64,000 bases of DNA from Thermoanaerobaculia bacterium (GCA_036271335.1 DATBAW010000600.1:5635-69634); one strand, 5' to 3'. Numbered from the stretch's first letter, positions 7,161 through 50,359 are shown. The notes: generated by a model from the letters alone, not told the origin. Numbers and translations: made by a program.

Positions 7161-7246
7161 GAACACGGACGAGCACGGACGGACAGGGACGAACACGGAC
7201 AGAAAAAAGACCCGGCTCCCGGTGTCCCTGTTCGTCCGTGCTAGTC
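7161..7246. repeat. Imperfect hairpin built from CACGGAC/AGGGAC heptads (left arm 7161-7200, A-rich loop, right arm 7221-7246)
   Basis: gaacacggacgagcacggacggacagggacgaacacggac ... gtgtccctgttcgtccgtgctagtcc. The right arm is roughly the reverse complement of the left. It sits between the stop of the 5075..7153 gene and purC. Confidence 0.6.
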
Positions 7247-7272
7247 CCCGATTTCTGATATAGAACCCTCCC

Positions 7273-8169
7273 ATGGAAACCCTGTGGCAGAGCGACCTCC
7301 CCGGCCTCCCCGAGCCCCGGCGGGGCAAGGTGCGGGACGTCTACGACCTCGGCGACACGCTGCTGATCGTCGCCTCCGACCGGCTGTCCGCCTACGACCA
7401 CGTGCTGCGGCCGGGGATCCCGGGCAAGGGGAAGATCCTCAACCAGCTCTCGAACGTCTGGTTCGAGCGGCTGGCCGCGGTCGTCCCCAACCATCTGCTG
7501 GCGACCGATCCGGCGGACTTCCCGGCGGCGCTAGCGCCCTACCGCGACCGGCTGCGCGGCCGCGCGGTGCTGGCACGCAAGGCGCGGGTCATCCCCTTCG
7601 AATGCGTGGCGCGCGGCTTCCTGGCCGGCAGCGGCTACCGCGAGTACATGCAGTCGCGGAGCGTCTGCGGCATCCCGCTCCCCGATGGCCTCGAACGGGC
7701 CAGCATGCTGCCGGCGCCGATCTTCACCCCGGCGACCAAGGCCGAGGAGGGGCACGACGAGAACGTCGACTTCGCGACCGTCGAGCGCGCCATGGACCCC
7801 GGTCTCGCCGCCCGTCTGCGCGAGCTCACCCTCGACCTCTACACGATGGGCGCCGTGCACGCCGCCGAGCGCGGCCTGATCCTCGCCGACACCAAATTCG
7901 AGTTCGGCCACTCCGTGGAGTCGGGAGAGCTGCTGCTGATCGACGAGGTCCTCACCCCCGACTCCTCCCGCTACTGGGACCTCACCCACTGGGTCCCGGG
8001 CAAGGAGCCGGCCTCGTTCGACAAGCAGTTCGTCCGCAACTGGCTCGACGCCTCGGGCTGGGACAAGGAATCGCCCCCGCCCGAGCTCTCGGCCGACGTC
8101 GTCCAGGGCACCCTCGACCGCTACGTCAAGGCGTTCCGGCGGCTGACCGGGCGGGAGCCGGAGCTGTAA
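7273..8169 (+). CDS. purC: Phosphoribosylaminoimidazole-succinocarboxamide (SAICAR) synthase
   Basis: RGKVRDVYDLGDTLLIVASDRLSAYD, ILADTKFEFG and LIDEVLTPDSSRYW are classic PurC motifs. 298 aa. Confidence 0.92.
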   Translation: METLWQSDLPGLPEPRRGKVRDVYDLGDTLLIVASDRLSAYDHVLRPGIPGKGKILNQLSNVWFERLAAVVPNHLLATDPADFPAALAPYRDRLRGRAVLARKARVIPFECVARGFLAGSGYREYMQSRSVCGIPLPDGLERASMLPAPIFTPATKAEEGHDENVDFATVERAMDPGLAARLRELTLDLYTMGAVHAAERGLILADTKFEFGHSVESGELLLIDEVLTPDSSRYWDLTHWVPGKEPASFDKQFVRNWLDASGWDKESPPPELSADVVQGTLDRYVKAFRRLTGREPEL

Positions 8170-8199
8170 CGGCAGCTTCTACCCGGCTCGTTCCCCCTC

Positions 8200-8282
8200 C
8201 TGGGACCGCCGGCGTCCCGCCGGCTCTAACCAAAACAAACCAAAATGCGGGGTTAGAGCCGGCGGGACGCCGGCGGTCCCAG
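8200..8282. repeat. REP-like element: 32-bp perfect inverted repeat with a 19-nt A-rich loop
   Basis: ctgggaccgccggcgtcccgccggctctaacc (8200-8231) and its exact reverse complement (8251-8282), directly after the purC stop. Confidence 0.9.
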
Positions 8283-8352
8283 GGAGATGTCGCGCGGCTT
8301 CACGGGCTCCTGGAACCCGTCGCGGGTTCCGGAGCTGATATCATCTCTTTCC

Positions 8353-9012
8353 ATGAATTCTGAGCCGCGGATCGCCGATCTTCCCGCCACGATCCTTCTC
8401 CTGCCGCTGGCGCCCTGGCTGCTGCTGCCGGAGACGATGCTGCCGGTCGCCATCACCGCGCCGGAAGGGCGGGCGGTGATCGACGCCGCGCTGGCGGCGG
8501 ACGGCTGGGTGGGCGTGGTGCAGGCGCGGGACGACGAGAGCCGCGATCCGGCGCGGCGCTTCTATCCGGTCGGCTGCCTCGCCCGCATTCACGAGGAGAG
8601 CCGCGGCGGCGATGCGCTCCATGTACGTCTGGAGGGCGTCGTCCGCTTTCGCCTGCGCGTGGAGCTGCCGCCGGCGGGCGGGCTCTCCCGGGGCGACGTG
8701 GAGTACGGCGAGTTCGCCGGCGACCTCCGCCGCGGCGAAGAGGAGGCGGAGGACCTGAAGCTCGAGCTGTTCAAGGACCGGATCCTCGAGCTTGGCCGCC
8801 AGCAGTTCGGCTCCGCCGGCGCGCTCGAGACGATGTCCCCCCGGCAGATCATCCTGTTCATGGCCCAGACCGCGCCGCTCGCCCCGATCGAGAAGCAGGC
8901 GCTGCTCGAGGCGCGGGACTTCCGCGCCCTCCTCGACACCCTCGGCCAGCTCTTCGCGCTCAACTACCTGACCACGACGCCGGATACCACGCCCCCCTCG
9001 CGCGTCAACTGA
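8353..9012 (+). CDS. LON N-terminal (substrate-binding, PUA-like) domain protein, paralog 1
   Basis: LPLAPWLLLPETMLPVAI, then GVVQARDD...PVGCLARI...LEGVVRFRL and a helical C-terminus, the pattern of stand-alone Lon-N proteins. ATG at 8353 chosen inside track ORF 8287..9012. Confidence 0.7.
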   Translation: MNSEPRIADLPATILLLPLAPWLLLPETMLPVAITAPEGRAVIDAALAADGWVGVVQARDDESRDPARRFYPVGCLARIHEESRGGDALHVRLEGVVRFRLRVELPPAGGLSRGDVEYGEFAGDLRRGEEEAEDLKLELFKDRILELGRQQFGSAGALETMSPRQIILFMAQTAPLAPIEKQALLEARDFRALLDTLGQLFALNYLTTTPDTTPPSRVN

Positions 9013-9024
9013 ACGCGCGCCCTC

Positions 9025-9121
9025 CCTTGCCGTTTCGCTTGCAGTCTTTCCCTTGCGGTCTTTTCCCTTGCGGTCTTTTCCCTTGCGGTCTTTACCCTTG
9101 CAGTCTTTACCCTTGCAGTAC
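9025..9121. repeat. Tandem array of about 6.5 copies of a 15-bp unit (CCTTGCGGTCTTTTC and variants)
   Basis: Units at 9051, 9066, 9081, 9096 and 9111, plus degenerate copies at 9025 and 9037. Lies between the two Lon-N paralogs. No unique spacers, so not CRISPR. Confidence 0.9.
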
Positions 9122-9150
9122 CGCGGGCGGTCTGTGATCATAGGGCCGCC

Positions 9151-9810
9151 GTGAAGCCCGACGAGATGCCCACCACCCTGCCGCTCTTCCCGCTGGAGCA
9201 ACCGCTGCTCCTGCCGGGGACGGTCGTGCCCTTCGCGGCCACCGAGCTGGGCCAGCGCAACCTCGTCGACGATGCCATGGCGGCAGACCGCTACGTGGCG
9301 ATCATCCAGCCGCTCGCCGACGGTTCCCCCGCCGCCCGCGCCCTGGCCGGCCGGCCGCCGGTCTACCAGGTCGGCTGCGTCGGCTACATCGGCGAGTGCC
9401 ACGAGACCGAGGAGGACCGCTATCTCGTCCTCGTCGGCGGCGTGATCCGCTTCCGGATGATCGGCGAGGCGCCCTGCGACCGCGGCTACCGCCGCGTGGT
9501 GGTGAGCTACGGCGAGTTCGCCGACGATCCCGAGCAGATCGACGACGAGCTCGAATTCCCCGTCCTGCGCGGCCTGGTGCGCCAGCGCATCGAATCCAAC
9601 GAGTCGGACATGGACCCCGAGATCATGGAGAACATGGCCGGGACCGAGATCGTCACCGCCATCGCCCACGCCATCCCGCTCTCCCCGGCCGAGCGCCAGG
9701 TGCTGATGGAGACGCCCAGCCTGCGCGAGCTCGAGACCGTCCTGCTCAGCCTGATGACCGGCCCCACCGGCCTCCCCAGCTTCGACTTCCCGCTCTCGCA
9801 GCCGAGCTAG
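9151..9810 (+). CDS. LON N-terminal domain protein, paralog 2
   Basis: LPLFPLEQPLLLPGTVVPF, YVAIIQP, QVGCVGYI, LVGGVIRFRM. Same architecture as 8353..9012. GTG start. Confidence 0.7.
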   Translation: MKPDEMPTTLPLFPLEQPLLLPGTVVPFAATELGQRNLVDDAMAADRYVAIIQPLADGSPAARALAGRPPVYQVGCVGYIGECHETEEDRYLVLVGGVIRFRMIGEAPCDRGYRRVVVSYGEFADDPEQIDDELEFPVLRGLVRQRIESNESDMDPEIMENMAGTEIVTAIAHAIPLSPAERQVLMETPSLRELETVLLSLMTGPTGLPSFDFPLSQPS

Positions 9811-9839
9811 TCAGCGCCCTTTTTCGCATAACTCCGGGC

Positions 9840-11186
9840 ATGACTCTGGCCTTCCGTCCCGGCGACGACGTTCCGGTCGTCCAGTCCCTGGTCAAGGATC
9901 TCGGCGTCGCGCCGGGAACGCTCGGCCTCGCGATCGACGACCGCGACGAGATGCTCGGCTTCCTCGTCGACGCCTATGACGGCGACCGCGAGCAGGCGCT
10001 GTTCCGGTATTTCCGCTCCGGAGCGAGCATCGCCGATTCGATGTTTCAGGTTCTCCGCTGGCACTTCGGCGCCACCGACCGGATCGGCAAGCTCCTCGAC
10101 TTCGCCAGCGGCTACGGACGGGTGACCCGCTTCCTCGTGCGCGCGATCCCCGCCGAACGGATCTGGGCGGCCGACATCTACGCCGGCGGCGTCCGCTTCC
10201 AGGAGGAGACGTTCGGCGTGCACGGGATCGTCTCGACCACCCGTCCGGAGGACTTCTCCTGCGCGGAGCGGTTCGACGCCATCCTGGTCACCTCCCTGTT
10301 CACCCATCTTCCCGAGGAGCGCTTCATCGCCTGGCTGCGGGTGCTCGCCGGCCTGCTCGCCCCGGGGGGCATCCTCGCCTTCAGCACCCATTCTCCCGCC
10401 GTGCTGCCGGCGGGGACGGCGATGCCGGCGTCGGGGATCTTTTTCCAGCCGACCAGCGAGAGCACGTCGCTGGACAAGAACGACTACGGCTCGACCTGGG
10501 TGACGCCGGAGTTCGTGCGCTCGGCGCTCGACCGCGCCGTCTCGCCGCGGGCCTCCCTGCATTGCCTCGGTCGGGCGCTGTGCAATTTCCAGGACCTCTG
10601 CCTCGTCGTCGCCGAGCCGGGAGTCGACTTCCGCCCGCTGAGCTTTCAGTGGGAGCCGCACCTCTTCCTCGACCGCGCCCTCCTGCAGGAGATGGGGCGG
10701 CGGCTCGATCTCCGCGGGTGGGTGGCGGCGCTGTCCGGCCCGGTCCGGGCGATCGAGGTCCGGCTCGACGGCGAGCTCCTGACCACGATCTCCAGGTTCG
10801 ATCCGCGCCCCGACGTCGCCGCGTTCCTGGGCGACGAGCGCTTCCTGCATACGGGCTGGAGCTGCTCCTGCTCCCTGCCCTCGGGGGTCTCGCACAGCGC
10901 CGCCGTCCTGCGGCTGCTGGTCGTGGACGGCCGCGGCGTCTCCTGGCCCCTGTGGGCGGGCTCCATCGAGGCGATGCGGCTGGCCGGAGCGCAGAACGAG
11001 CTGAAGGATCTCCACCAGATCCTGGGCGAGAAAAACGAGGAGATCCGCGCGCAGCAAGCCCAGGCCGCCCAGACGCAGGCGGCGCTGACGGCCCGCATCC
11101 AGGCGATGGAGGCGAGCCGCTTCTGGAAGCTGCGCAACGCCTGGTTTCAGATCAAGCGCGGGCTGCGGCTGACGGACGAGCCCTAG
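9840..11186 (+). CDS. Class I SAM-dependent methyltransferase with a beta-rich and coiled-coil C-terminal extension
   Basis: Motif I LLDFASGYGRVTRFL, post-I AADIY, motif II/III AILVTSLFTHL...LAPGGILAF. The C-terminal ELKDLHQILGEKNEEIRAQQAQAAQTQAAL looks like coiled coil. The true ATG at 9840 lies inside track ORF 9396..11186, whose first 148 codons overlap the previous gene. Confidence 0.75.
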   Translation: MTLAFRPGDDVPVVQSLVKDLGVAPGTLGLAIDDRDEMLGFLVDAYDGDREQALFRYFRSGASIADSMFQVLRWHFGATDRIGKLLDFASGYGRVTRFLVRAIPAERIWAADIYAGGVRFQEETFGVHGIVSTTRPEDFSCAERFDAILVTSLFTHLPEERFIAWLRVLAGLLAPGGILAFSTHSPAVLPAGTAMPASGIFFQPTSESTSLDKNDYGSTWVTPEFVRSALDRAVSPRASLHCLGRALCNFQDLCLVVAEPGVDFRPLSFQWEPHLFLDRALLQEMGRRLDLRGWVAALSGPVRAIEVRLDGELLTTISRFDPRPDVAAFLGDERFLHTGWSCSCSLPSGVSHSAAVLRLLVVDGRGVSWPLWAGSIEAMRLAGAQNELKDLHQILGEKNEEIRAQQAQAAQTQAALTARIQAMEASRFWKLRNAWFQIKRGLRLTDEP

Positions 11187-11189
11187 CGC

Positions 11190-13436: not shown

Positions 13437-13485
13437 GACCTGCCATGCGCCGTGGCGGCGCGCTTTCCGTCAGCTCTTATCGCCG

Positions 13486-13812
13486 TCAGCGCTTGCGGCT
13501 GCTCTCCAGGAAACCCGCCCAGTCGGCCACCGCCTGCCGGAGCGTGGCGAGCGGCAGGGAGTGTGGCCTGGCATTCTCAGCATTCTCGTCCACGATCATC
13601 GCCCCCTCCGGCGAGAGGGAGAGCGTGTAGGCGTTGCCGGTGCGCTCCCACGAGGCCTCGCGGCCGGATTCGACGCGGTCGATGGCGTGCAGGATCTCCT
13701 GGGCGGCGGCGGGGCTGTCCTGGAGGTCGCTCTCCAGAAAACCGGCCAGCCGTTGGTCGTGCCCCTTGGCGCGGGGGTCGCCGGCCGCATCCCGGTAGTG
13801 CTCGGGCTTCAT
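13486..13812 (-). CDS. Small acidic cytoplasmic protein, YacL/UPF0231-like (possible immunity partner of the upstream EndoU gene)
   Basis: MKPEHYRDAAGDP...ESGREASWERTGNAYTLSLSPEGAMIVDEN resembles E. coli YacL ([27 protein letters not shown]) from memory. ATG at 13812 is preceded by GAGG. Confidence 0.5.
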   Translation of the reverse strand: MKPEHYRDAAGDPRAKGHDQRLAGFLESDLQDSPAAAQEILHAIDRVESGREASWERTGNAYTLSLSPEGAMIVDENAENARPHSLPLATLRQAVADWAGFLESSRKR

Positions 13813-13820
13813 CAGACTAT

Positions 13821-14396: not shown

Positions 14397-14507
14397 CGGG
14401 GTGTTCCTCGAGGAAAGGATAGCGCAGGAGGCGGCGTTGGCCCTCATCACCCCGCCCCTCTTCTCCCATCGCCCTCCCCCGACCGGGAGAAGAGGGAGAG
14501 CGTTGAT

Positions 14508-14578
14508 GTAGGGGCGCAGCATGCTGCGCCCTCGACGTTGCCGTAACGGGAAAAGGGCGCAGCATGCTGCGCCCCTAC
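14508..14578. repeat. REP family A pair: GTAGGGGCGCAGCATGCTGCGCCC ... GGGCGCAGCATGCTGCGCCCCTAC
   Basis: Two copies of the 20-bp perfect palindrome gggcgcagcatgctgcgccc with complementary GTAG/CTAC ends and a 23-bp spacer. The same element recurs at 24499..24599. Confidence 0.9.
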
Positions 14579-14653
14579 GAGCGGCAGTTTGGGGAAAGGG
14601 CGATGGGAGTGAGGGGCCCGACGGAGAGGAACCGTCCCGAAAACCCCCGTCCC

Positions 14654-17204: not shown

Positions 17205-17312
17205 GACGTCCTCCCTGCCGCCGTCCGAGGCAGCCTATGCTGAAGCATAGGCTAGCACGAAGATTTGCCGGGCGCCATCGCACCTCGGAGCCTGCGCCGC
17301 AGGAAACCAGAA

Positions 17313-17423
17313 GCAAGGACGTAAAGGACAGCAGGGACGCCAAGGACATCAAGGACGCAGAAAAAGAGCGGAGATTGGCTCTGTCTTGTCCTTGTGGTCC
17401 TTGCAGTCCCTTAATGTCCCTTT
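17313..17423. repeat. Imperfect hairpin built from AAGGAC/AGGGAC motifs, same design as 7161..7246
   Basis: Left arm: caaggacgtaaaggacagcagggacgccaaggacatcaaggacgcag. Loop: aaaaagagcggagattggct. Right arm: ctgtcttgtccttgtggtccttgcagtcccttaatgtcccttt. The loop plus right arm recur at 26797..26829. Confidence 0.7.
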
Positions 17424-17442
17424 GAAGATTTACCGCAGGCTC

Positions 17443-17979: not shown

Positions 17980-18097
17980 GGCTGTCTCCTTTAGGGGATC
18001 TGGCTGCCGGTTGTACCGGCACTCCAAGCTCTATGCAAACAGCGTGCGGGGGGGATCCTATCTCGCCCTCGACAGGCCCAGGGTCATCGATCCCCAG

Positions 18098-26424: not shown

Positions 26425-26713
26425 GGCTTCTCACCTTTCCGACTTCGGATCGGTCTCCTCTCTTCTCCTGTGAGGCGACGGACCGGCGTCTTTCGTTACA
26501 GCGTCTTCGCTGCGAGTCCCGGCTTTCTGACCAACGCCTTCCGATCAACGATCGCGAGGTCGGAAAACCCTCGCCGTATTTCTCTACGCACGGGAATGGC
26601 AAAAGATGCGCCAGCACCCCCTCCCAGGAGAACGCGAGAAAAAGGGTCCGCGATCGTCTCCGGCGGGCGACGGGGGTGTCGGGGAAAGATGACGGCTGGG
26701 GGCGGCGCACTCT

Positions 26714-26793
26714 GTAGGGGCGGCCCTATGTGGCCGCCCTGCTCGGCGAAAGGCACCCCCCCGCCCAGGGCGGCCACATAGGGCCGCCCCTAC
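26714..26793. repeat. REP family B: 28-bp perfect inverted repeat with a 24-nt loop
   Basis: gtaggggcggccctatgtggccgccctg (26714-26741) and its exact reverse complement (26766-26793). Shares the GTAGGGGCG...CGCCCCTAC ends with family A. Confidence 0.9.
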
Positions 26794-26796
26794 GAA

Positions 26797-26829
26797 AAGA
26801 TTGGCTCTTTCTTGTGTCCTTGCAGTCCC
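26797..26829. repeat. Half copy (loop plus right arm) of the AAGGAC-type hairpin element seen at 17313..17423
   Basis: gattggctctttcttgtgtccttgcagtccct compared with gattggctctgtcttgtccttgtggtccttgcagtccct at 17372-17410. It abuts the truncated 3' end of the aldo-keto reductase remnant. Confidence 0.65.
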
Positions 26830-27105
26830 TGCCGAACGGGCTGTAGGCCACCACGGCGATCCCCTGCTCGTCGCAGAAGGGGATCACGGCGTGCTCGATC
26901 GCCCGCTCCTCCAGATGGTAGAGCACCTGGTTGCAGGCGATCTTCCCCGGGCCGGCGAGGCGCAGGGCCGCGGCGAGCTCCTCCTCGTCGAAGTTGCTCA
27001 CCCCCCAGGCGAGGATCTTGCCGGCCGCGCCGGCCCGCGTCCCGAATCCGCTCTTTGCAAGGGGCTCGCCCGCCTCGACGCGCGTTTCGGCTCGACCTCT
27101 GAAGG
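26830..27105 (-). pseudogene. Aldo-keto reductase gene remnant (central ~90 codons only)
   Basis: Reverse-strand frame reads ...ETRVEAGEPLAKSGFGTRAGAAGKILAWGVSNFDEEELAAALRLAGPGKIACNQVLYHLEERAIEHAVIPFCDEQGIAVVAYSPFG, then runs into repeat-derived sequence. This corresponds to the AKR core (GKIRxxGVSNF ... NQVxY ... AYSPLG). The ~120 N-terminal and ~100 C-terminal residues are missing. Confidence 0.55.
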
Positions 27106-28327: not shown

Positions 28328-29112
28328 CGGCGGTCCAGGCGCTGATCCTCACCGCCGCCGCTTTCGGCGCCGGGGTGATGAACGCGATGGCGGGAGGGGG
28401 AACGATCCTCACGTTCCCATCCCTGATCTTCCTCGGCATCCCCGCCATCGCGGCCAACGCGACCTCGACCGTGGCCCTCCTCCCCGGCGGCGTCGCCAGC
28501 CTCTACGGCTACCGGGCCGAGGTGCGGGAGAACCGGGGGTGGCTGAAGACGCTCTTCCTGCCCAGCCTGGTCGGCGGCACGATCGGCTCCGTCCTCCTGC
28601 TGCGCACGCCGGAGAAGGTGTTTGCCCTCCTCGCTCCCCTGCTGATCCTGTTCGCCACCCTGCTGTTCCTCATCCAGGGCGCGCTCGCTCGCCGCCGTCC
28701 GCCGCGCGAGGTGAGCGATCCGTCCCAGCTGCCGCGCGGGCGCTGGGCTCTCGCCTCGCTCCTGCAACTCGGCGTCGCCCTCTACGGCGGCTATTTCGGC
28801 GCCGGCATCGGCATCCTGATGCTGGCCCTCCTCGGCTTCCTCGGGCTGGCGAACATCCACGCCGCCAACGGGGTGAAGAACTTCTTCAACCTGTGCATCA
28901 ACACGATCGCGGCGGCCTACTTCATCTACAAGGGGGCCGTGGTCTGGCCGGCGGCGCTGGTGATCGTGGTTGGCGCCACCCTCGGCGGCTACGGCGGCGC
29001 CCGCTTCGCCAAGCGGATCGGCAAGGACAAGGCGCGCGCGGCGGTGATCGTCATCGGCCTGGGGGTGACGGCGATCCTGGTCTGGCAGCAGGTGATGAAG
29101 ATGAAGTCCTGA
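28324..29112 (+). CDS. TauE/SafE family sulfite/anion exporter
   Basis: 8 predicted TM helices. N-terminal AFGAGVMNAMAGGGTILTFPSLIFLG and C-terminal LYGGYFGAGIGILMLALL are the duplicated TauE motifs. Confidence 0.85.
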   Translation: MTAVQALILTAAAFGAGVMNAMAGGGTILTFPSLIFLGIPAIAANATSTVALLPGGVASLYGYRAEVRENRGWLKTLFLPSLVGGTIGSVLLLRTPEKVFALLAPLLILFATLLFLIQGALARRRPPREVSDPSQLPRGRWALASLLQLGVALYGGYFGAGIGILMLALLGFLGLANIHAANGVKNFFNLCINTIAAAYFIYKGAVVWPAALVIVVGATLGGYGGARFAKRIGKDKARAAVIVIGLGVTAILVWQQVMKMKS

Positions 29113-29132
29113 GGGCGACCGCAGGTCGCCCC
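29111..29132. terminator. Hairpin (REP family C variant) between the convergent tauE-like and DUF3592 genes
   Basis: gagggcgacc-gca-ggtcgcccc begins at the last two bases of the TGA stop (29110-29112). Confidence 0.5.
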
Positions 29133-29160
29133 TACAACCTCCGGCGAAACGTAGTCGCCC

Positions 29161-30306
29161 TCACCCGCCGCCGTCCACGCGCACCTCGAATTCGTCCTCG
29201 CTGTCCGGCCAGAAGCGGAGCTCGCAGCGGATCCGGAGCGTCCAGACGGCGTCGTCCGGATCGCCCTGGAACGAGCCGGAGAGATCGGCGGGTACGGTGA
29301 AGCTGGCGGTGCCGCCGGCCGCGATCGCGGCCGGATCGCTCGACTCCACCACCGGCAGCGTGAGGAAGACCGGGCCCTGGACCCGGCCGCTCCTCGGGGT
29401 CACGATTGCCGTCCGCCCCTCGAAGTCGATCCGGATCCGCCCCACCCCCTGGCCGCCGCTCCCCAGCCGCCACTGGAGAAGCGCCGGCTTGCCCGGGGTG
29501 AGGACGCCCGGGGTCAGCGTCACGTGCGGGCGCGGGTTGAACAGCGCCAGGAGCTGGCGGACCACGCCGAGGATCATCGCCAGGCCGATCAGAACGAAGG
29601 GGATCATGAACAGGGCCATGCAGCCGTTGGCCTGCCCTTTCTTCCAGGCCGTCGCCAGCTGCCAGACGAAGACCGAGGTCAGCCCGTTCCAGAGACAGGC
29701 CAGGAAGACCACCCCGAGGAACAGCCGGAACGGGGAGGACTCCGCCTTCAGCTCGGCCGACCGGGCGCGGGCCGCGGCCGTCAACGGCGCCACCGGACGA
29801 TTCCCCAGGCGGCCGGGGCGGATCGCCAGCGCCAGCACGCCGAGGCCGGCCGCCAGGAAGACCAGCGGGAACAGACCGAGCAGGTACGCCGGCGAGAAGC
29901 TCCGCGACAGCACGGCCTCGTCCGGGTGGGCGGGATCGAACCAGCAGGGGACCAGCGCCCCCGGCGGGTAGCGGTCGACGATCGCCTGCTTCGCCTCCCT
30001 GCCGCTCGAGGAGCCGGCGATGAAATCGTAACGTTTCGCCTCGTGCGGGAGCCCATTCACCGCGTAGCCGTAGCGGATGTCCACCCGGTAAGTGGCGCCC
30101 CGGCCGGGAGCCAGCGCCACCTGGCTGGAGCGGACGGTGCACCGCGTCTCCGTCCACGACCGGGCGGCGACCAGTTGCCCGGCCGGCTTCACCAGCGTGA
30201 CGTAGGCGCCGGCGCTGCCGACCAGGATGAAGAGGAGAGCGAACAGCACCATGCACCCGTTGGCCGGGTTGGTGGCGGAACGCGGCGAGAGGACGCGGTA
30301 GGCCAT
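29161..30306 (-). CDS. DUF3592-type membrane protein (two-module)
   Basis: TM helix followed by TRCTVRSSQV...YRVDIRYGYAVNGLPHEAKRYDF...YPPGALVPCWFDPAHPDEAVL (the DUF3592 pattern). Further TM helices and a second beta-rich module follow. Confidence 0.65.
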   Translation of the reverse strand: MAYRVLSPRSATNPANGCMVLFALLFILVGSAGAYVTLVKPAGQLVAARSWTETRCTVRSSQVALAPGRGATYRVDIRYGYAVNGLPHEAKRYDFIAGSSSGREAKQAIVDRYPPGALVPCWFDPAHPDEAVLSRSFSPAYLLGLFPLVFLAAGLGVLALAIRPGRLGNRPVAPLTAAARARSAELKAESSPFRLFLGVVFLACLWNGLTSVFVWQLATAWKKGQANGCMALFMIPFVLIGLAMILGVVRQLLALFNPRPHVTLTPGVLTPGKPALLQWRLGSGGQGVGRIRIDFEGRTAIVTPRSGRVQGPVFLTLPVVESSDPAAIAAGGTASFTVPADLSGSFQGDPDDAVWTLRIRCELRFWPDSEDEFEVRVDGGG

Positions 30307-33478: not shown

Positions 33479-36397
33479 ATGCCCATGCTGAAGCTTCGTG
33501 TCTCGTTGTCGTTCGGTCTCACCCTGTCGATCCTCGCGGCGCTGATCGCCGTCCCCGGCCATTCCCAAATCCTGCGGGCCAGCGGCAGGGGGGGATTGTC
33601 GGCCCTCGCGTTCAGCCAGGAGAAGCTGCGGTCCGCGGAGCACGTCGTGCCGCTGGAACGGGCCGCCAGCGCCAAGTCCATGCAGGACGGCTGGGAGGCC
33701 TTCCGCCTCGGCGCCGGACCCGAGGCCAAATGGCAGGCGTCGGTCGACGAGCGCACCGGCCTGATCTCGTTCGCCGAGGGGGGAAACCTCCCCTGGATCC
33801 CGGGCCATGGCAACCGGATGACGCTCCAGGACCTCGCCGGCGATACGAAGAGGAAGATCGACCGGGTCGATCTCGACGTCCTGGACTCGGTCGCGCGCTC
33901 GTTCCTGCCGCGGGTGACCGAAATGCTCGGCGTCGATCCCGCCGAGCTGGCGCTCAGCCGCGGGCGCAGCGGCCAGCCGGCCGGCTACCTCTGGTTCGTG
34001 GACTATGACGTGGTCCGCGACGGCCTGCCGGTCGAGGGGGCGCGGGTGCTCTTCCGGGTCAACAACGGCAACCTGATCCAGTTCGGCTCCGAGAATCTTC
34101 CTTCCCCGGGCGCGATCGTGCCGCCGACCCGTCTGACGAAGCGGCAGGCGCGGGCCGCCGTCGCCGCCTACCTCGGCGGCTTCCAGAAGGGGGGCACGTT
34201 CCAGGACGACGGCAGTCTGCACCTGATCCCGGTCGGCACCGCGGACGGCGGGCGCGGCCTGGCCAAGGTCTGGCAGATCATCCTCCGCCGCGAAGGGGAG
34301 ACGCCGACCTGGCGGGCGCGGGTCGACGCCACCACCGGCGAGCTACTGGAGTTGGTCGACGTCAATCAATATGCCGAGGCGAACGGCGGCGTCTACCTCG
34401 AGTCGCCCTCCACGACGCTGGAGGTCACGCGGCCGATGCCCTACATCGACCTCTCCACCGGCGGCTACGCCAACTCGGCCGGCGTCTTCCCATACACCTT
34501 CGGGACGGTGACCACGGCGCTCAATGGTCTGTACGTCAAGGCCGGGGACTACCAGTGCGGCCCCATCACGAGGTCCGCGGAAGCCAACGGCAACATCCTC
34601 TTCGGGACCTCCTCGGGGACCGACTGCGCCGTCCCGGCCGGCGCCGCCGCCGGCGATACCCACGCCGCGCGCACCGCCTACTACAACCTCAACCGGATCA
34701 AGGAGATGGTCCGCGGCTGGATGCCGGGCAACACCTGGAACAATCAACAGCAGGAGGTGTTCGTCAACAACAGCAACGTCTGTGGTCCCTACTCGTCCGC
34801 AGGCATCATCTCCCTGCAGCAATCGTTCAGCCAGACGGGCCTCTCCAGCTGTACCAACTCGGGTGAGAACGCCGGGCTGTTGTTCCACGAGTTCGGCCAC
34901 ACCCTCGACGAGAACGACGGCAACGGCCTGACCGGCGATGGGACGACCAGCCAGACGTATGCGGACACCATGGCCATGATCGCCCTCCACGACTCCTGCA
35001 TCGGCCGGGGATTCTGGTACGTCGACTGCACCACCTTCGGCGTCGACGCCTGCCTCAACTGCAAGGGACTGCGGGATGCCGACTACGCCCAGCACGTCTC
35101 GCACGGCGCCGCCACCGCGGCGAACTTCATTTGGCAATGTCCGGACCCCTACATGGGCGAATTTCCCGGCCTCTGCGGCAAGGATCTCGACTGTGAGGCG
35201 AACGTGCCCGACCAGGCCCTGTGGGACGTCGCCAACCGCGACCTGCCGAGCCCCGGCACCGCTGCCGCCTGGGCGATCTTCGACCGGCTCTGGTTCCTCT
35301 CCCGGAGCACCGCCACGGCGGCGTTCTCCTGCTCTCCCGGAGCGATCTATGGCTCGGACGGCTGCGGCGCCGGCTCGCTCTGGAAGGTGTTCCGCGCCGC
35401 GGACGACGACGACGGCAACCTGAGCAACGGCACGCCGCACGGCCGCGCCCTCTACGCCGCCTTCAACCGCCACGCCATCGCCTGCCCCTCCGACGCCGGC
35501 GCCAACACGACCTTCGCCGGCTGCGCCGCTCCCTCCGCACCGGCGTCGCTCACGGCCGTCGCCGGCGACGATCAGGTGAACCTCTCCTGGGGCTCCTCCG
35601 GCTCCAACGTCTATGACGTGTTCCGCAACGAGGTCGGCTGCAACTCCGGCTTCACCCGCATCGCGACCGGCCTCACCTCTCCGTCCCTCAAGGACTCCGC
35701 GGTCGCCGATGGGACCACCTACTACTACCAGGTCACCGCCTATCCCACCGGCAACGAAGCCTGCGCCTCGGTGCCTTCGACCTGCATTTCCGTGGCTCCC
35801 GCGGCCGCGGCGTGCGGCGCTCCCGCCGCGCCGGCCAGCCTGACGGCGACCGCTCCGGCCTCCGGCGGCGTCGCCCTGAGCTGGACCGCGGTGACCGGGG
35901 CCTCCGCGTATTACGTCTACCGTGGGACGGCCTCGGGCGGGCCCTATACCCAGATCGGCTCGGCTGCCACCCCCGGCCTCACCGACCACTCGACCACCGG
36001 CGGCACGGCGTACTTCTACGTGGTGCGGGCGATCCATGTCTCGAACGACGGCACGAGCTGCAGCTCGGCAAATTCCCCGCAGGCCACGGCGACGCCGGTG
36101 CCGGACTTCGCGCTCTCGATCACCCCGGCCGCCGGCACCGTACCGTCCGGTGGCACCTCGATCACTTACACCCTCACCGTGACCCGGCTGGGAGGCTTCA
36201 CCGGAGCCGTGTCCCTGACGTACTCCTTCTCCCCCTCGACCGGCATCTCCGCCACCCTCTCGCCCAACCCGGTAACCGGCACCAGCGCGACGCTGCACGT
36301 GACGGTCCCCGCGTTCGGCGGCTTGTCCTCCCACCTGACGGTGACCGGCGTCAGCGGCGCGCTCACCCACACGGCGACGGCGACCCTCAGTCGATGA
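33479..36397 (+). CDS. Secreted zinc metalloprotease (HEXXH), tandem paralog 2
   Basis: Colinear with 30493..33414, with the same signal peptide style, PVEGARVLFRVNNGNLIQFG, LFHEFGHTLDENDG and the same Fn3-like and Ig-like tail. The RBS context CCCTCAAGGAGGG is also duplicated. Confidence 0.75.
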   Translation: MPMLKLRVSLSFGLTLSILAALIAVPGHSQILRASGRGGLSALAFSQEKLRSAEHVVPLERAASAKSMQDGWEAFRLGAGPEAKWQASVDERTGLISFAEGGNLPWIPGHGNRMTLQDLAGDTKRKIDRVDLDVLDSVARSFLPRVTEMLGVDPAELALSRGRSGQPAGYLWFVDYDVVRDGLPVEGARVLFRVNNGNLIQFGSENLPSPGAIVPPTRLTKRQARAAVAAYLGGFQKGGTFQDDGSLHLIPVGTADGGRGLAKVWQIILRREGETPTWRARVDATTGELLELVDVNQYAEANGGVYLESPSTTLEVTRPMPYIDLSTGGYANSAGVFPYTFGTVTTALNGLYVKAGDYQCGPITRSAEANGNILFGTSSGTDCAVPAGAAAGDTHAARTAYYNLNRIKEMVRGWMPGNTWNNQQQEVFVNNSNVCGPYSSAGIISLQQSFSQTGLSSCTNSGENAGLLFHEFGHTLDENDGNGLTGDGTTSQTYADTMAMIALHDSCIGRGFWYVDCTTFGVDACLNCKGLRDADYAQHVSHGAATAANFIWQCPDPYMGEFPGLCGKDLDCEANVPDQALWDVANRDLPSPGTAAAWAIFDRLWFLSRSTATAAFSCSPGAIYGSDGCGAGSLWKVFRAADDDDGNLSNGTPHGRALYAAFNRHAIACPSDAGANTTFAGCAAPSAPASLTAVAGDDQVNLSWGSSGSNVYDVFRNEVGCNSGFTRIATGLTSPSLKDSAVADGTTYYYQVTAYPTGNEACASVPSTCISVAPAAAACGAPAAPASLTATAPASGGVALSWTAVTGASAYYVYRGTASGGPYTQIGSAATPGLTDHSTTGGTAYFYVVRAIHVSNDGTSCSSANSPQATATPVPDFALSITPAAGTVPSGGTSITYTLTVTRLGGFTGAVSLTYSFSPSTGISATLSPNPVTGTSATLHVTVPAFGGLSSHLTVTGVSGALTHTATATLSR

Positions 36398-43267: not shown

Positions 43268-43334
43268 AAGGAGTGGTACGGATGGGCGGGGCGGAGGTTC
43301 TGCGGGGCGCGGAGAACCTCCCTACCCGCCCCTC

Positions 43335-43895: not shown

Positions 43896-43949
43896 AGCCT
43901 TGAGGATATACCGAACCCCGGTCGGAAGGGGTGGCGGATTCACCGGGCG

Positions 43950-45701: not shown

Positions 45702-45705
45702 CCGG

Positions 45706-46146
45706 TCACAGGGCCTTCGGCAGGATCACGACTTCGAACCAGTAATCGTTGAGCCGCTCGATGGCCCGCATGAAGCCTTCGAGATCGACCGGCTTCTGGA
45801 TGTAGCTGTTGGCGCCCGCCTTGTAGCAGGCCGAGACGTCGCGGTCGTCGCTGGAGGTGGTGAGCACGATCACCGGGATCTGCCTCAGCTCGGGGTGCGA
45901 CTTGATCTCGGTGAGCACCTCGCGGCCGTCGGTCCCCGGCAGGTTGAGGTCGAGCAGCACGACTCCCGGCCGCGGCGCCTCGGCATGCTTGCCGCGGCGG
46001 AGCAGGAAATCGAGCGCCTCGTCACCGTCGGCGCAATGATGGATCGGGTTCTTGAGACCCGAGCGGCGAAAGGCGCGCTCAGTGGTCTCGCAGTCTTCGG
46101 GGCTGTCCTCCACGAGGAGGATCGGCTGGTTGGGGCTTTCGAGCAT
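45706..46146 (-). CDS. Single-domain response regulator (REC only)
   Basis: ILLVEDSPEDCE, VLLDLNLPGTDG, VIVLTTS, YIQKP. The ATG overlaps the kinase stop (TAATG). Confidence 0.9.
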   Translation of the reverse strand: MLESPNQPILLVEDSPEDCETTERAFRRSGLKNPIHHCADGDEALDFLLRRGKHAEAPRPGVVLLDLNLPGTDGREVLTEIKSHPELRQIPVIVLTTSSDDRDVSACYKAGANSYIQKPVDLEGFMRAIERLNDYWFEVVILPKAL

Positions 46147-47633
46147 TACGCGCGGACCTCGCCTTCCTGCAGGGTGAAATAGAACGTCGTTCCGGTTCCG
46201 GGCGACGATTCGAGCCAGATTCTGCCATGGTGCCGCTCGACGATCTTCTTGGCGATCGTCAGGCCGGCCCCGGTGCCGCCGCCGTACTTGTCGCGCCCGT
46301 GCAGCCGCTTGAAGATCCGGAACACCGCCTCCTGGTGCTTCTCGGGGATGCCGATGCCGTTGTCCCGCACAAAGAACACCGGCGGGCCCGCGCCGTCTTC
46401 CCGCCAGCCGACCTCGAGCCACTTCTCCGGCTTGTCGTTGTACTTCATCGCGTTGACGATCAGGTTGTGGAAGATCTCCCCCACCCGCGCCCGGTCGGCG
46501 TGGACGGTGGGGAGCGGCCGGGGGATCCGCATCTCGATTTTCTCCTGTTGCAGGGAGATGGCGAGCGAATCGAGGATCTCGGCGACGATCTCGTTGAGGT
46601 CGACGTCGTCCAGGCCGAGGTCGACACGGCCGAGGCGGGAGAACTGGAGGAGCGAGTCGATCAGCGTTTCCATGCGGCGGGTCAGCCGCATCAGGGTCTC
46701 CAGCTTGGAGCGCCCCTCGGCGTCGAGCTTGTCGGCGTAGTCCTCGAGCAGGAAGCTCGAGAAGTTGTGGATTCCCCGCAGCGGCTCCTTGAGATCGTGC
46801 GAGGCGATGTAGGCGAAGTCGTCCAGCTCGCGGTTGCTCTGGTTGAGCTCCTCGTTGCGCTGCTGGAGCTCGCGGGTCCGCTCCTCCACCCGGTCCTCCA
46901 GCACCTCCTTGGCATCCCGCAGCTCGGAATCGCGCCGCTGGATCTGGACCAGCATGTCGTTGAAGGCGTCGACCAGCTGGCCGAGCTCGTCGGAGCTCCG
47001 CTTGCCGGCGCGGATCGAGTAGTCCCGCCGCTCGGAGACCGCCCGCGCCGTGGCGGCGAGGGCGAGGATTGGCCCCGAGATCAGGCGCTGGAGCCCCGAG
47101 GAGAACGCCAGCGCCACGATCCCCGAGGCCAGGAAGACGACGCCGACGGTCAGCGCCTGCGTCCAGACCCGGCTCCGCAGCTCGTGGAGATCGCTGCGCA
47201 GATAGACGGTGCCGACCCGCTCCCCCTTGAGGTCGATGGGGCGGAAGACGACGAGCGCGCCGTCCTCGAACCGGGGGGCGTCGGGGCCGGGGCGGAGAGG
47301 AACCCGCGGCGTGGGACCGCCCCCCGGCGCCACGTTCACGAACAGGCCTCCCTGCCGGTCGTAGACGGCGGCGGCCACGATCGACGGGCGCGCCTTGAGG
47401 GCGCTCAGCGTTTCGATCTCGGCGGCGGGGTCCCGAAAGCTCAACGCCGCCGTGCTGTTCTGGGCCACGATGTCGGCCAGCGAATTGAGGTCGCGCTTCA
47501 TCTCCGCCTTGAAGCGCACCACGTTGAAGTAGATGATCGCGGCGCCGGCGAGCAGCAGGGTGCCGGCCGTCGTCAGCACGGCGATCAGCATCAGCTTCTG
47601 GCGGATGGGAGCGTGCTGGAGACTCCTCAGCAT
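46146..47633 (-). CDS. Sensor histidine kinase (periplasmic sensor - HAMP - HisKA - HATPase_c)
   Basis: TM helix / periplasmic ~140 aa / TM helix, HAMP (GPILALAATARAVSERRDYSIRAGKRSSDELGQLVDAFNDM), H-box FAYIASHDLKEPLR, NLIVNAMKY, DNGIGI, GTGAGLTIAKKIV. Confidence 0.9.
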   Translation of the reverse strand: MLRSLQHAPIRQKLMLIAVLTTAGTLLLAGAAIIYFNVVRFKAEMKRDLNSLADIVAQNSTAALSFRDPAAEIETLSALKARPSIVAAAVYDRQGGLFVNVAPGGGPTPRVPLRPGPDAPRFEDGALVVFRPIDLKGERVGTVYLRSDLHELRSRVWTQALTVGVVFLASGIVALAFSSGLQRLISGPILALAATARAVSERRDYSIRAGKRSSDELGQLVDAFNDMLVQIQRRDSELRDAKEVLEDRVEERTRELQQRNEELNQSNRELDDFAYIASHDLKEPLRGIHNFSSFLLEDYADKLDAEGRSKLETLMRLTRRMETLIDSLLQFSRLGRVDLGLDDVDLNEIVAEILDSLAISLQQEKIEMRIPRPLPTVHADRARVGEIFHNLIVNAMKYNDKPEKWLEVGWREDGAGPPVFFVRDNGIGIPEKHQEAVFRIFKRLHGRDKYGGGTGAGLTIAKKIVERHHGRIWLESSPGTGTTFYFTLQEGEVRA

Positions 47634-47636
47634 GGC

Positions 47637-48212
47637 TCAGGGCTCCGCCTTGGCACCGGCGGCGGGGACGATCCGCCTGGCCAGTTGCAGCAGCTTCGAG
47701 CTGACCTTGAGCCCCGCCTTGTCGGCGGCGTCGGTATTGATCTCGAAACGGACCTTCGAGCCCTCGAGAATGAAGTTGATGATCACTCCCTGGTCGACGA
47801 AGCCCTTGGTGTCCCCCACCGTCAGCACCGGCGAGTCCTTGAGCGCGGCGAGGATCTGCGGCAGCTTTTCGCGCTCCGACCGGCTGATGAACAGCACCTG
47901 GCAACCGCCGGGCTTGGGCGGGGCGTCGGCGCGGACGATGACCAGCTTGCGGTTCTCCACCGGCTCGCCCGCGACCGCCTGCAAGCTGCGGCCGAACGGG
48001 TCCTCGCCGAGCAGGCAGACCTTCAGGCTGGTGGCGTCCGGGAAGGCCGCGGCGGGCCAGTCCACGAACTTGGTGAAGTTGTAGAGGAACGCCGCCTTGA
48101 CGTCGTACTCCGGCGCCGTCTGGGCCGCGGCGGAGTACGGCAGCAGAAGCAGGACCGCCAGGAGGAGGCCTCGCCCGGGATTGAAATCCCGGGCTATCGA
48201 CGGCCGTCCCAT
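47637..48212 (-). CDS. YfiR-like periplasmic protein (DUF4154)
   Basis: YDVKAAFLYNFTKFVDWP, VLFISRSE, LTVGD..GF...G.IINF, RFEIN..A....GLKVSSKLL. The start ATG at 48212 lies inside REP family G. Confidence 0.7.
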   Translation of the reverse strand: MGRPSIARDFNPGRGLLLAVLLLLPYSAAAQTAPEYDVKAAFLYNFTKFVDWPAAAFPDATSLKVCLLGEDPFGRSLQAVAGEPVENRKLVIVRADAPPKPGGCQVLFISRSEREKLPQILAALKDSPVLTVGDTKGFVDQGVIINFILEGSKVRFEINTDAADKAGLKVSSKLLQLARRIVPAAGAKAEP

Positions 48213-48295
48213 CCGGGACTTCCGGCAGCCCATCCCCGCCCAGAGCCCCTGAAAGGGGCGACTGTCGGTAGCCCGGGATTTCAATCCCGGGCGAG
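48170..48295. repeat. REP family G: 27-bp perfect inverted repeat, 72-bp spacer
   Basis: ctcgcccgggattgaaatcccgggcta (48170-48196) and its exact reverse complement (48269-48295). Each arm is itself a cccggga..tcccggg palindrome. Confidence 0.9.
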
Positions 48296-48313
48296 CGCCC
48301 GAGGCCAGCGTCC

Positions 48314-50236
48314 TCAGAAGCGCCATGTCACTTTCCCGTAGACGCTGCGCTGGATCTCCTGGCGCAGGGGCGACGGCGGACCGAACTCGGGATGCCGGGG
48401 GTGCAGCAGGTTCTCGCCGGTGAGCGAGAGCTCCAGCCTGTCCGTGGCGCTCCAGCCGAGCCGCAGGTCGAGCTCGGTATAGGCCGGCACGGCCGGCGAC
48501 GGCAGGCTGGCCACGTAGTGCAGCGTGCCGTCGAGCTCGACCCGGCCGGGAAGGTCCATCAGCGAACGCAGGACGAAGCGGTCGAGCGGATCGTTCCCCT
48601 CCATCTTGCCGCCGGTCGGATCGAAGCTCTGGGGATCGAGGCTCAGCGACTTGCCGAAATAGGCGTACTCGGCGTGCAGCCGCCACCAGGGGGCCGCCTG
48701 GGCGCTCACCCGCAGCTCCGCGCCCCAGGTGTCGGCGCTCAGCTCGTTGCCGAAATGGTAGGGGAACGCCGCCGGAGGCGCCGCGGGCTCATAGCTGCGC
48801 AGATGGTCGTAGACGTTGTAGTAGGTCGCCAGGTCGACCGTCAGGCCCGTCCGCACCTGCATGCGGTAGCCGAGCTCGTAGGCGAGCAGCTCCTCGGAGA
48901 CGAAGGCGTTCGAGCCTTCGAGAAACGGCTGGCCCGTGGCGGAGTAGAAGACGATGTCCTCGTCGTAGCGGGTGGGCGTGCGGACGGCGCGGGAGATCGC
49001 CGCCCAGAGGGTGCGGCGGTCGTCGGGCACCCAGCTCAGGCGGACGCTCGGCTGCACCTCGAACCCCGTCCAGTGGTTGTGCTCGACCTTCGTCCCCGCC
49101 GTCAGCTTCAGATGGTGCTCGAGCGCGATCTCGTCCTGGGCGAAGGCGCTGAACAGGTTCTCGGTCACCTGGTCGGGGAGGAACGCCACGCCCGGGCTGT
49201 TCCCCACCTCGTCCTGCGTGATCCGGTAGCCCGCTCCCCAGACCAGCTCCTGCCGCGAGCCCAGCGGGCTGCGATGCTGATAGTCGACGTCGAAGGTGTG
49301 GCGATGCTCCTCGAACCAGTCGGGGATCTCACGGTGGGTGAAGTCATAGTAGATCTGCAGGTCGCTGCCGGAATTGGCGGCGTACGTGGTGGTCCAGCGG
49401 CCGAGGACATTGGCGCCGTCGAGCACGGTGTCGGCGCGCTCCACCACCGTCTGGCCGGCGAGCCCGTGGTAGGCGTCGCCCTGGAGCGTGAAGGCGCCGG
49501 AGCCGCCGTCGGCGCGGTCGATCCGGAACCCCGCCTGCCCGTGGCGCAGCGGATCCTGGGCGCTGTCGCCGTCGGCGAAGGCGAGCGCGTCCTGGTAGGA
49601 GTACTGGCCATAGGCGCGATAGGCGAGGTTGTCGCCGATCTTCCCCCCCTCGCGGAAGGCGGCCGTGGCCTCCTGCTGATTGCCGCCGCCGATCGAGACC
49701 AGCGTCCCCTGGGTGTCCCGCGCGCTCTTGGTGAGGATGTTGATCACGCCGTTGACCGCGTTCGCCCCCCAGAGAGTGGCGCCGGGACCGCGGATGATCT
49801 CGATGCGGTCGATGTCCTCCAGCATCACGCCCTGGACGTCCCAGAACACCCCGGAATAGAGCGGCGTGTAGACGCTGCGGCCGTCGATCAGCACCAGCAG
49901 CTTGTTGGAGGTGGTGGTGTTGAAGCCGCGGGAGCTGATCGCCCAGGTGTTGCCGTCGGATTGAGCCACCTCCAGGCCGGCGGTGATCCGCAGCACGTCC
50001 GGCAGGTTGGTGGCGCCGGAGCGGCGGACGTCCTCGGCGGTGAGGACGGTGATCGCCGCCGCCGCGCCCGAGACCGGCTCGCTACGGCGGGAGACCGAGG
50101 TCACGTCGAGGTCCATCAGCTGCTCGATCGAGAGCCCCTTCAGCTCCAGAGGCCCCGAGGCCTGAGGCTGCTCCTTCTGCGCGTACGCCGGCGCCGCCAT
50201 GGCGAGCGCCACGCAGAGGGCGGCCAGGCTTCCCAC
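48314..50236 (-). CDS. TonB-dependent outer-membrane receptor
   Basis: Plug domain VTSVSRR.E....AAAAITVLTAEDVRRSGATNLPDVLR, IEIIRGPGATLWGANAVNGVINI, terminal aromatic ...YGKVTWRF. The start is uncertain: GTG at 50236 gives the signal peptide VGSLAALCVALAMAAPAYAQ, while the track ORF runs on to 50422 through REP family F. Confidence 0.85.
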   Translation of the reverse strand: MGSLAALCVALAMAAPAYAQKEQPQASGPLELKGLSIEQLMDLDVTSVSRRSEPVSGAAAAITVLTAEDVRRSGATNLPDVLRITAGLEVAQSDGNTWAISSRGFNTTTSNKLLVLIDGRSVYTPLYSGVFWDVQGVMLEDIDRIEIIRGPGATLWGANAVNGVINILTKSARDTQGTLVSIGGGNQQEATAAFREGGKIGDNLAYRAYGQYSYQDALAFADGDSAQDPLRHGQAGFRIDRADGGSGAFTLQGDAYHGLAGQTVVERADTVLDGANVLGRWTTTYAANSGSDLQIYYDFTHREIPDWFEEHRHTFDVDYQHRSPLGSRQELVWGAGYRITQDEVGNSPGVAFLPDQVTENLFSAFAQDEIALEHHLKLTAGTKVEHNHWTGFEVQPSVRLSWVPDDRRTLWAAISRAVRTPTRYDEDIVFYSATGQPFLEGSNAFVSEELLAYELGYRMQVRTGLTVDLATYYNVYDHLRSYEPAAPPAAFPYHFGNELSADTWGAELRVSAQAAPWWRLHAEYAYFGKSLSLDPQSFDPTGGKMEGNDPLDRFVLRSLMDLPGRVELDGTLHYVASLPSPAVPAYTELDLRLGWSATDRLELSLTGENLLHPRHPEFGPPSPLRQEIQRSVYGKVTWRF

Positions 50237-50359
50237 TGTAGAGACGCCCCGTGGGGCGTCTCCGCGGCGGAGATAACGGCTCAGCCGCCCCAACGACCCG
50301 GCGCCGGTCACCGAGGACCGCCGCTTCGGAGACGCCCCACGGGGCGTCTCTACAGTGGG
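50232..50359. repeat. REP family F: 32-bp perfect inverted repeat, 64-bp spacer
   Basis: cccactgtagagacgccccgtggggcgtctcc (50232-50263) and its exact reverse complement (50328-50359). Each arm contains the palindrome gagacgcccc-gtggggcgtctc. Confidence 0.9.

Follow-up and report, generated by a model that had tools for sequence, protein, structure and literature searches.

Several families of short palindromic repeats and the transposases associated with them have been described in bacteria. The layout of two inverted palindromic units, known as a REP doublet forming hairpins (REPIN; REP, repetitive extragenic palindromic sequence), was set out by Bertels & Rainey 2011 (PMC3116915), and a superfamily of GTAG-tagged REPs was described by Di Nocera et al. 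2013 (PMC3733652), together with acidobacterial 'TIRYT/TIRtron' elements, in which genes are accompanied by repeated double-palindromic inverted repeats. Subclass 1.2 of the TnpAY1 enzymes is defined by a Y---Q--HH signature and is generally without IS200-type terminal structures (Quentin et al. 2018, PMC6006769). Acido-Lenti-1 (Rfam RF01687) was proposed as an RNA from covariation (Weinberg et al. 2010, PMC2864571), and a 2026 preprint describes this family as 'of unknown function'. Finally, periodic 'beads-on-a-string' arrays (clusters #8,581 and #156,623; bioRxiv 10.64898/2026.10.21.760802) were reported from Chloroflexota or Patescibacteriota with no function given. Here we analyze the hairpin repeats in a 64-kb stretch of DNA (the window; C600:5635-69634 of source assembly G000) from an uncultured soil bacterium of the Thermoanaerobaculia (Acidobacteriota), which hold counterparts of each of these systems.

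G000 is a metagenome-assembled genome of 6.58 Mb (69% G+C, 602 contigs, 95% complete), and it was compared with sister genomes of 78-85% identity. Short hairpin repeats of at least ten families were present in the genome; elements of this kind are ordinary, but their diversity here is unusual. Six of the repeats discussed here (families A, B, E and F, the element TIR44, and family G) are very probably REP/REPIN-type non-autonomous elements moved by HUH/Y1 transposases. This reading draws on their sequence, copy number, arrangement in doublets, extragenic location, lack of target-site duplications, association with genes and presence or absence between species. The GGAC-array hairpins (H1-H3) form a separate, genus-restricted dispersed repeat, and family C is a low-copy hairpin.

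Recovery and genome-wide dispersal of the hairpin modules

An original prediction, made from the window sequence, had proposed at least seven unrelated families of REP-like or miniature inverted-repeat transposable element (MITE)-like palindromes. An inverted-repeat scan of the window recovered each of the predicted inverted repeats at its predicted position, with arms of 21-48 nt that were 76-100% complementary. Predicted folds were highly stable (-29 to -179 kcal/mol), H3 excepted. A census of each unit across the whole genome, tolerating mismatches, found the modules spread through G000 rather than restricted to the window, save H3, whose sequence was unique, and nearly family C, with 5 units. 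Positions relative to genes refer to crude, GC3-based gene calls, by which 75% of the genome was covered as coding. A 14-mer abundance profile of the window was swamped by GC-rich low-complexity coding words and was useful for spotting an additional family, P, alone.

GTAG-headed REPINs

Family A occurs twice in the window. A1 (14508-14578) has GTAG-headed arms of 25 nt (14508-14532 and 14554-14578) that are 100% complementary and enclose a 21-nt spacer, and A2 (24498-24600) has 27-nt arms (24498-24524 and 24574-24600), also 100% complementary, around a unique spacer of 49 nt. The arms of the family B REPIN (26714-26793; arms 26714-26746 and 26761-26793, GTAGGGGCGGCCCTATGTGGCCGCCC) are 94% complementary. 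The family E REPIN (8199-8283) consists of 33-nt arms (8199-8231 and 8251-8283; 100% complementary) separated by 19 nt, and the family F REPIN (50232-50359; arms 50232-50270 and 50321-50359, GTAGAGACGCCCCGTGGGGCGTCTC) of 95% complementary arms separated by 50 nt.

All four families were abundant. The family A 24-mer was present in 113 exact copies in the genome and in 152 copies at up to two mismatches, compared to 0 for a reversed control. The census assigned 136 units to family A at 80 loci, with 52 of the 80 arranged as head-to-head doublets (modal gap 22-23 nt), and 180 units to family B at 102 loci, 69 of them head-to-head doublets. Families E (75 units, 51 loci) and F (70 units, 40 loci) formed 22 and 18 doublets with modal gaps of 18 nt and ~73 nt, respectively. 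Family B was also dispersed in relatives from the genus. The arrangement as two inverted copies of a small palindrome, which the original prediction had recognized, is the REPIN layout and is dominant genome-wide.

The 5' foot of families A and B is GTAGGGGCG and family F carries GTAGAGACG, with the conservation of A and B ending exactly at the outer GTAG...CTAC. The head of family E is GTTAGAG in G000, but GTAGAG beside the REP-associated tyrosine transposase (RAYT) gene of relative G008. The families had been regarded as unrelated, yet GTAG-headed REPs include A, B, F and, judged by the counterpart in G008, E, and TIR44 and G are both of the Acido-Lenti-1 type described below.

Locus midpoints lay inside called genes in 16/80 cases for family A, 25/102 for B, 3/51 for E and 11/40 for F (28-38% for the F and G loci), and REPIN loci within genes were mostly found within ~120 nt of over-extended 5' ends. 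Divergent intergenic regions were depleted in REPINs (A 4/52 and B 2/66, compared to 18.5% of intervals), with convergent regions enriched. Families A and F, when translated, yield the peptides GRSMLRPY, GAQHAAPL and CRDAPWGVS, as expected from the earlier view that the repeats create false open reading frames (ORFs). Repeats of this kind generate false ORFs and false N-terminal extensions genome-wide and probably break the assembly too; masking them would improve gene calls in this lineage.

Directly against the F REPIN lies the 5' end of a gene for a secreted protein (48314-50200, - strand), whose mature part begins ...SLAALCVALAMAAPAYAQ. The orthologue in sister genome G001 starts MLKHPSLSETLMVLSFVAAAAPAY after a GGAGGAA ribosome-binding site. 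In G000 the F repeat replaces that N-terminus, and the frame is open across the whole element to an ATG at 50422 (region 50200-50422); a candidate GTG within the repeat end is possibly the start of the gene.

Family A numbered 0 to 53 copies across genomes of the genus, several of which had none, and G015, from the same order but another family, held the exact 24-nt unit in 51 copies (e.g., C2:115660, C6:243608), a patchy distribution that suggests horizontal spread or repeated loss. Within G000, full-length copies have near-invariant arms and spacers that are almost all different, and identical full-length copies are almost absent. The REPIN populations look old and maintained rather than the product of a fresh burst, leaving the suggestion of recent activity in doubt.

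RAYT genes and the absence of target-site duplications

Pfam Y1_Tnp matches were found at 11 places in the genome, tblastn added one more (C141), and none was located in the window. Five RAYT genes were each bracketed by a repeat family: C190 by family E, C544 by family F, C581 by the GTTTTGTAGAGACG... family, C141 by the CGGAGGCCACGGGGACCGCGG family and C408 by the CGTAGAGACGCCCCA family; the last three families are likewise of the GTAG kind. HUH and Y motifs were present in the RAYT-type proteins. Against NCBIfam REP_Tyr_transpos (cut-off 80 bits), C190 passed with 83.9 bits and C544 (64.8) and C581 (47.6) scored below, and a profile of the five RAYT proteins had 4er8, TnpA-REP, as its top solved structure. 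A separate ~300-aa HUH protein (SNHYHLLL ... WSRRYQA), 56-66% identical between its four or five copies (C527:8890-9849, C592:1-902, C184:1-601, C477:271-1248, C418:3-506), had a weak Y1_Tnp match and no flanking repeats, and may be a separate multi-copy HUH element.

Across 179 doublets, with boundary offsets of 0-5 and lengths of 2-8 bp, no excess of target-site duplications over a shifted control was detected in any family. This check had been suggested along with the MITE reading, and its result argues against elements of the DDE type and fits HUH/Y1 single-strand chemistry. Classical MITEs would be deletion derivatives of DDE-type insertion sequences mobilized in trans via their terminal inverted repeats. 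A short non-coding core between inverted terminal repeats, in families that are dispersed and extragenic, is what this would produce, but no duplication of 2-8 bp was seen at any boundary offset, HUH/Y1 genes are the sole ones that these units flank, and every arm forms a hairpin of its own on a GTAG foot, the signature of a REP. An origin as MITEs is therefore extremely unlikely.

Under movement by HUH/Y1 transposases, each unit would be a hairpin recognized by a cognate single-strand-DNA transposase, and the unit of copying would be two inverted units with their spacer. Families A, B, E and F would be served by RAYT-type enzymes, and TIR44 and G by an IS200-like Y1 enzyme with the Y---Q--HH motif (subclass 1.2). 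Following the chemistry of IS200/IS605 and TnpA-REP, single-stranded DNA would be cut and rejoined at the hairpin foot, a reaction that would leave no target duplication, with landing mostly in 3' or co-directional intergenic DNA. The enzymatic activity itself is inferred, and likewise which enzyme would move A, B, TIR44 and G in G000.

TIR44, family G and the Acido-Lenti-1 motif

TIR44 (18094-18294) has arms of 48 nt (18094-18141 and 18247-18294) that are 98% complementary, and its 105-nt spacer contains further small hairpins. The arms form an inverted doublet of Acido-Lenti-1 units at 18096-18141 (-) and 18247-18292 (+), scoring 49.2 and 48.0 bits against a gathering score of 37. The family G REPIN (48170-48295; arms 48170-48217 and 48248-48295, 85% complementary) is likewise an inverted doublet of such units, at 48174-48220 (+) and 48244-48291 (-), with 37.7 and 37.1 bits against the same gathering score. 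As both arm pairs match RF01687 above the gathering score, TIR44 and G are related. In the census TIR44 comprised 14 units at 8 loci, 6 of which were doublets with a gap of 100-105 nt, and family G comprised 21 units at 13 loci.

At least 140 matches to the RF01687 model were found in the genome, and strict two-hairpin units numbered 242 compared to 27 in a reversed control. These units were divided equally between the strands (121 on each) and formed 63 '-+' pairs at ~100-112 nt. Subfamilies differed by covarying stems: CCTGGGGT with 118 units, CCCGGGAT, which is family G, CCTGGGGC with ~30 units, and CCCGGACC, which is TIR44.

Inverted two-hairpin units of the CCTGGGGT type, a family of ~118 units, bracket a gene on C321. 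Its product passes the NCBIfam model for IS200/IS605 transposases with 71 bits (cut-off 55), is nearest to 2fyx and ISDra2 TnpA, and has an HUH motif, ~150 residues and low copy number (one intact and two degenerate copies in the genome). The protein reads ...NYIRNQEAHH..., and the Y---Q--HH signature was invariant in a six-sequence alignment of this class, from which locus L011 was left out. The two degenerate copies lie in tandem at C100:6810-7420 and 9940-10594, one with a disrupted HUH region and one with an internal deletion, and each is bracketed by the same 35-nt inverted repeat, AGCCCAGGGCTGAGGCCGAAGGCCGATGCCCTGGG, not scored as Acido-Lenti-1.

The association extended well beyond G000. 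The Acido-Lenti-1 motif bracketed C321-class genes in 6/8 loci of the genus and in ~29-30 of 40 protein-selected loci from Acidobacteriota, Planctomycetota, Verrucomicrobiota and other phyla. In most bracketed loci a (-) unit ends ~45-100 nt ahead of the start codon and a (+) unit begins ~50 nt past the stop; a minority, C321 among them, show the mirrored arrangement. Each C321-class gene has its own stem sequence, with its two flanks near-identical to one another.

Because the two-hairpin unit flanks a Y1 transposase in inverted pairs, both here and in ~30/40 loci, the sequence data point to Acido-Lenti-1 as a DNA repeat and not a small RNA (sRNA) gene. The structured-RNA alternative raised earlier is how Rfam now labels two of the families, but the data as a whole favor a DNA repeat. 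If the modules, or at least TIR44 and G, were structured-RNA genes, as the current Rfam sRNA label of Acido-Lenti-1 implies, then the matches of their arms above the gathering score of RF01687, the covariation on which the RNA proposal rests (PMC2864571) and the highly stable folds would all be accounted for. The same covariation is equally explained by enzyme-specific DNA hairpins, however, because every gene has its own stem and near-identical flanks, so that stem covariation follows the individual gene copy. The units are also strand-symmetric (121/121) with two thirds in inverted pairs, the Y1 gene is bracketed at fixed distances in ~30/40 loci across phyla, and copies are present or absent between sister species. 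RNA genes are thus a very unlikely explanation. The link between Acido-Lenti-1 and a Y1 transposase was not made in the open literature searched.

Presence and absence at orthologous sites

The positions of the repeats differed between sister species. The A2 site was empty in G003, occupied by a P-type element in G001 and G004, and occupied by a G-type element in G006. The E site was empty in G003 and G007 and held a P-type element in G001, and the F site was empty in G001 and G003. The intergenic regions of G001 and G003 that are orthologous to the H1 site had no H1, and likewise C1 was missing from its site in G003 and C2 from its site in G001. As orthologous sites hold other families in other species, intergenic gaps have been reused by different families. 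Family G was present at the orthologous site in G001 (~90% identical by eye) and absent in G003.

Retention for a host function, with mobility irrelevant today, would give the repeats a role in 3'-end stabilization, termination or nucleoid-protein binding. Their enrichment between convergent and co-directional genes with avoidance of divergent promoter regions, their near-invariant arms beside drifting spacers, and the retention of G at one site in G000 and G001 are all consistent with such a role. Secondary host roles are established for Escherichia coli REPs. It is nevertheless an unlikely account of the modules, as orthologous sites are empty or filled by other families in sister species, the hairpins are not followed by T-runs, and within a single genus the copy number of a family ranges from 0 to 53 per genome.

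Several observations weigh against the interpretation of these repeats as elements moved by HUH/Y1 transposases. A RAYT flanked by A or B repeats was not found in G000 (95% complete, in 602 contigs), either by searching for same-family units 300-2500 nt apart and by tblastn with all eleven Y1 proteins, or by applying the RAYT profile to G000 and five relatives and inspecting any ORF between GTAGGGGC heads 400-1500 nt apart (554 A/B-type heads in total). RAYTs flanked by GTAGGGGCG-headed hairpins were present only in relatives G015 and G010. TIR44 and G also have no gene of their own in G000, where the single intact C321-class gene is flanked by another subfamily. Exact insertion junctions could not be read against G003, G001 or G007, where the intergenic DNA was too diverged, the sister genomes being only 78-85% identical. 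The lack of identical full-length copies leaves current activity unproven, and a host function could likewise explain why G persists at its orthologous site in G001. Finally, H and C showed no link to any transposase.

The search for RAYT genes that had been proposed found partners for families E and F, on C190 and C544, but not for A and B in G000. As the RAYTs of G015 and G010 carry flanks of GTAGGGGCG-headed hairpins, the cognate A/B gene is probably absent from the fragmented assembly or has been lost. The reading of the modules as REP-like was supported, the units being dispersed and extragenic, but H belongs to a different class of element. For A, B, E, F, TIR44 and G, movement by HUH/Y1 transposases remains very probable.

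GGAC-array hairpins

The H arrays are a different class of element from the REPs. H1 (7161-7247), located between two co-directional genes, consists of a CANGGAC array in the 5' arm and its reverse complement in the 3' arm, forming a long imperfect hairpin (arms 7167-7190 and 7224-7247, 92% complementary). H2 (17290-17434, +) is an oriented dispersed repeat of ~145 nt with five AAGGAC-type units, a conserved loop (GAGC..GATTGGCTCT) and four GTCC units. Whole copies on C53, C303 and C563 were 89-93% identical, and H2 has therefore been copied as a unit. H3 (26797-26832) is a solitary right half of an H2-type element, with the loop remnant GATTGGCTCT and GTCC units, abutting the B REPIN. It had been listed as a hairpin at 26797-26829, a segment with a predicted energy of -6.2 kcal/mol, and as a solitary half-arm it forms none.

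The H unit is C-A-N-G-G-A-C followed by 2-3 variable bases, repeating with a period of 9 nt (188 spacings) or 10 nt (100 spacings), and arms hold 3-5 copies of the core. The earlier description as hairpins built of heptads fits the conserved 7-nt core, although not the period of 9-10 nt. At 49 loci, all of the same polarity, a GGAC array preceded a GTCC array, with five control motifs giving 0-4 loci, and 28 of the 49 lay between co-directional genes. In the minimum-energy fold 89% of core positions were paired compared to 66% of other arm positions. Each of the 13 genus genomes contained arrays (8-484 matches), and the order's other families had none bar five unrelated simple repeats. No genes flanked by H arrays were found. 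It is possible, but we hold it only tentatively, that the arrays represent a distinct, undescribed dispersed element unrelated to HUH transposases. The spacing of the cores (9-10 nt) is approximately the helical repeat, and such an element, if real, would imply a dedicated sequence-specific partner protein reading one face of the duplex or hairpin.

The region in which H3 adjoins the B REPIN (26444-27104) is a rearrangement hot spot, being 140 nt in G003 and ~2 kb with an extra gene in G001. In G000 it holds the B REPIN, the half H element and an apparent gene remnant (26831-27026, -) conserved in G004 and G006. Targeting of H loops by B REPINs was considered and rejected: 6/182 A/B loci adjoined an H half-array compared to a rough chance estimate of ~3, in line with ordinary nesting.

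Family C, family P and other observations

C1 (23071-23099) is a hairpin with a 13-bp stem immediately after a gene stop codon and belongs to a low-copy family. C2 (29110-29163; arms 29110-29130 and 29143-29163, 76% complementary) lies between convergent genes and shares with C1 a 22-mer found only five times in the genome. The sequences following C1, C2 and H (TTCCGCG, CTACAACC, CCGATTTCTGA, TTTGAAGATT) have no canonical T-run, and an assignment as intrinsic terminators was discarded. In the G001 region orthologous to 23051-23111 (G001:C377), a 371-nt insert occupies the position of C1; its periodic AAGACGG-type units followed by CCGTCCA-type units make it a second kind of array and reverse array with another core.

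Family P, an eighth family absent from the original prediction, has ~67 loci in the genome. Its element in the window (~14438-14620; CCTCATCACCCC / CCCTCTTCTCCC ... GGGAGAAGAGGG) hosts the nested A1.

Plant and animal miRNA models matched the long hairpins (cmscan) with scores far under the gathering thresholds and were discarded. An ARAGORN call of tRNA-Trp at 34363-34451 (- strand) sits within the second metalloprotease gene, had no Rfam tRNA match at the gathering threshold and is probably a false positive.

Comparison with described systems

This one genome combines no fewer than five RAYT-REP pairs with an IS200-like/Acido-Lenti-1 system and another two repeat classes, which makes it a compact natural system in which to ask how many REPIN populations coexist and whether enzymes cross-mobilize the hairpins of others.

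Families A, B, E and F resemble the REPIN-RAYT systems of Pseudomonas fluorescens and E. coli in their 24-33-nt palindromic units, 5' GTAG head, inverted doublets and conserved spacing. They also share hundreds of extragenic copies without target duplication, and RAYT genes that occur once each and carry their own REPs on their flanks (E, F and another three families). P. fluorescens and Stenotrophomonas maltophilia likewise have several REP/RAYT pairs per genome. Points of difference are the host, an acidobacterium from the Thermoanaerobaculia that is uncultured; the presence of an IS200-like system alongside five or more RAYT-REP pairs; the lack of a RAYT in the assembly for A and B, although no other families are as abundant; and the fact that only C190 exceeds the RAYT cut-off of NCBIfam.

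The arms of TIR44 and G match the full 46-position model of Rfam RF01687, with an 8-bp hairpin, a CUA-containing linker and a 5-bp hairpin. They differ from that family as it is described, as the motif appears from its arrangement to behave as a DNA repeat here, in strand-symmetric inverted doublets and bracketing a Y1 gene. The C321 class shares with subclass 1.2 and TIRYT elements the signature, ~150 residues, low copy number and inverted double-palindromic flanks that are also dispersed as a family. It differs from subclass 1.2 in that Acido-Lenti-1 units bracket the gene here and in ~30/40 related loci. Our data add one more genome and a 40-locus cross-phylum test for a 15-year-old orphan 'sRNA' as the DNA end-module of a Y1 transposase; if this is true, an abundant Rfam family would be re-filed.

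H1-H3 are most like the beads-on-a-string arrays, with which they share a fixed short motif alternating with variable trimers and followed by the reverse-complemented array, a location mostly between co-directional genes and no known associated protein. They are distinguished by the CANGGAC core, by a period of 9-10 nt rather than 7 or 8, by their acidobacterial genus, by the pairing of approximately two thirds of the variable positions as well, and by whole copies that are 89-93% identical. The GGAC arrays add a phylum and a period to the known range of such periodic inverted arrays.

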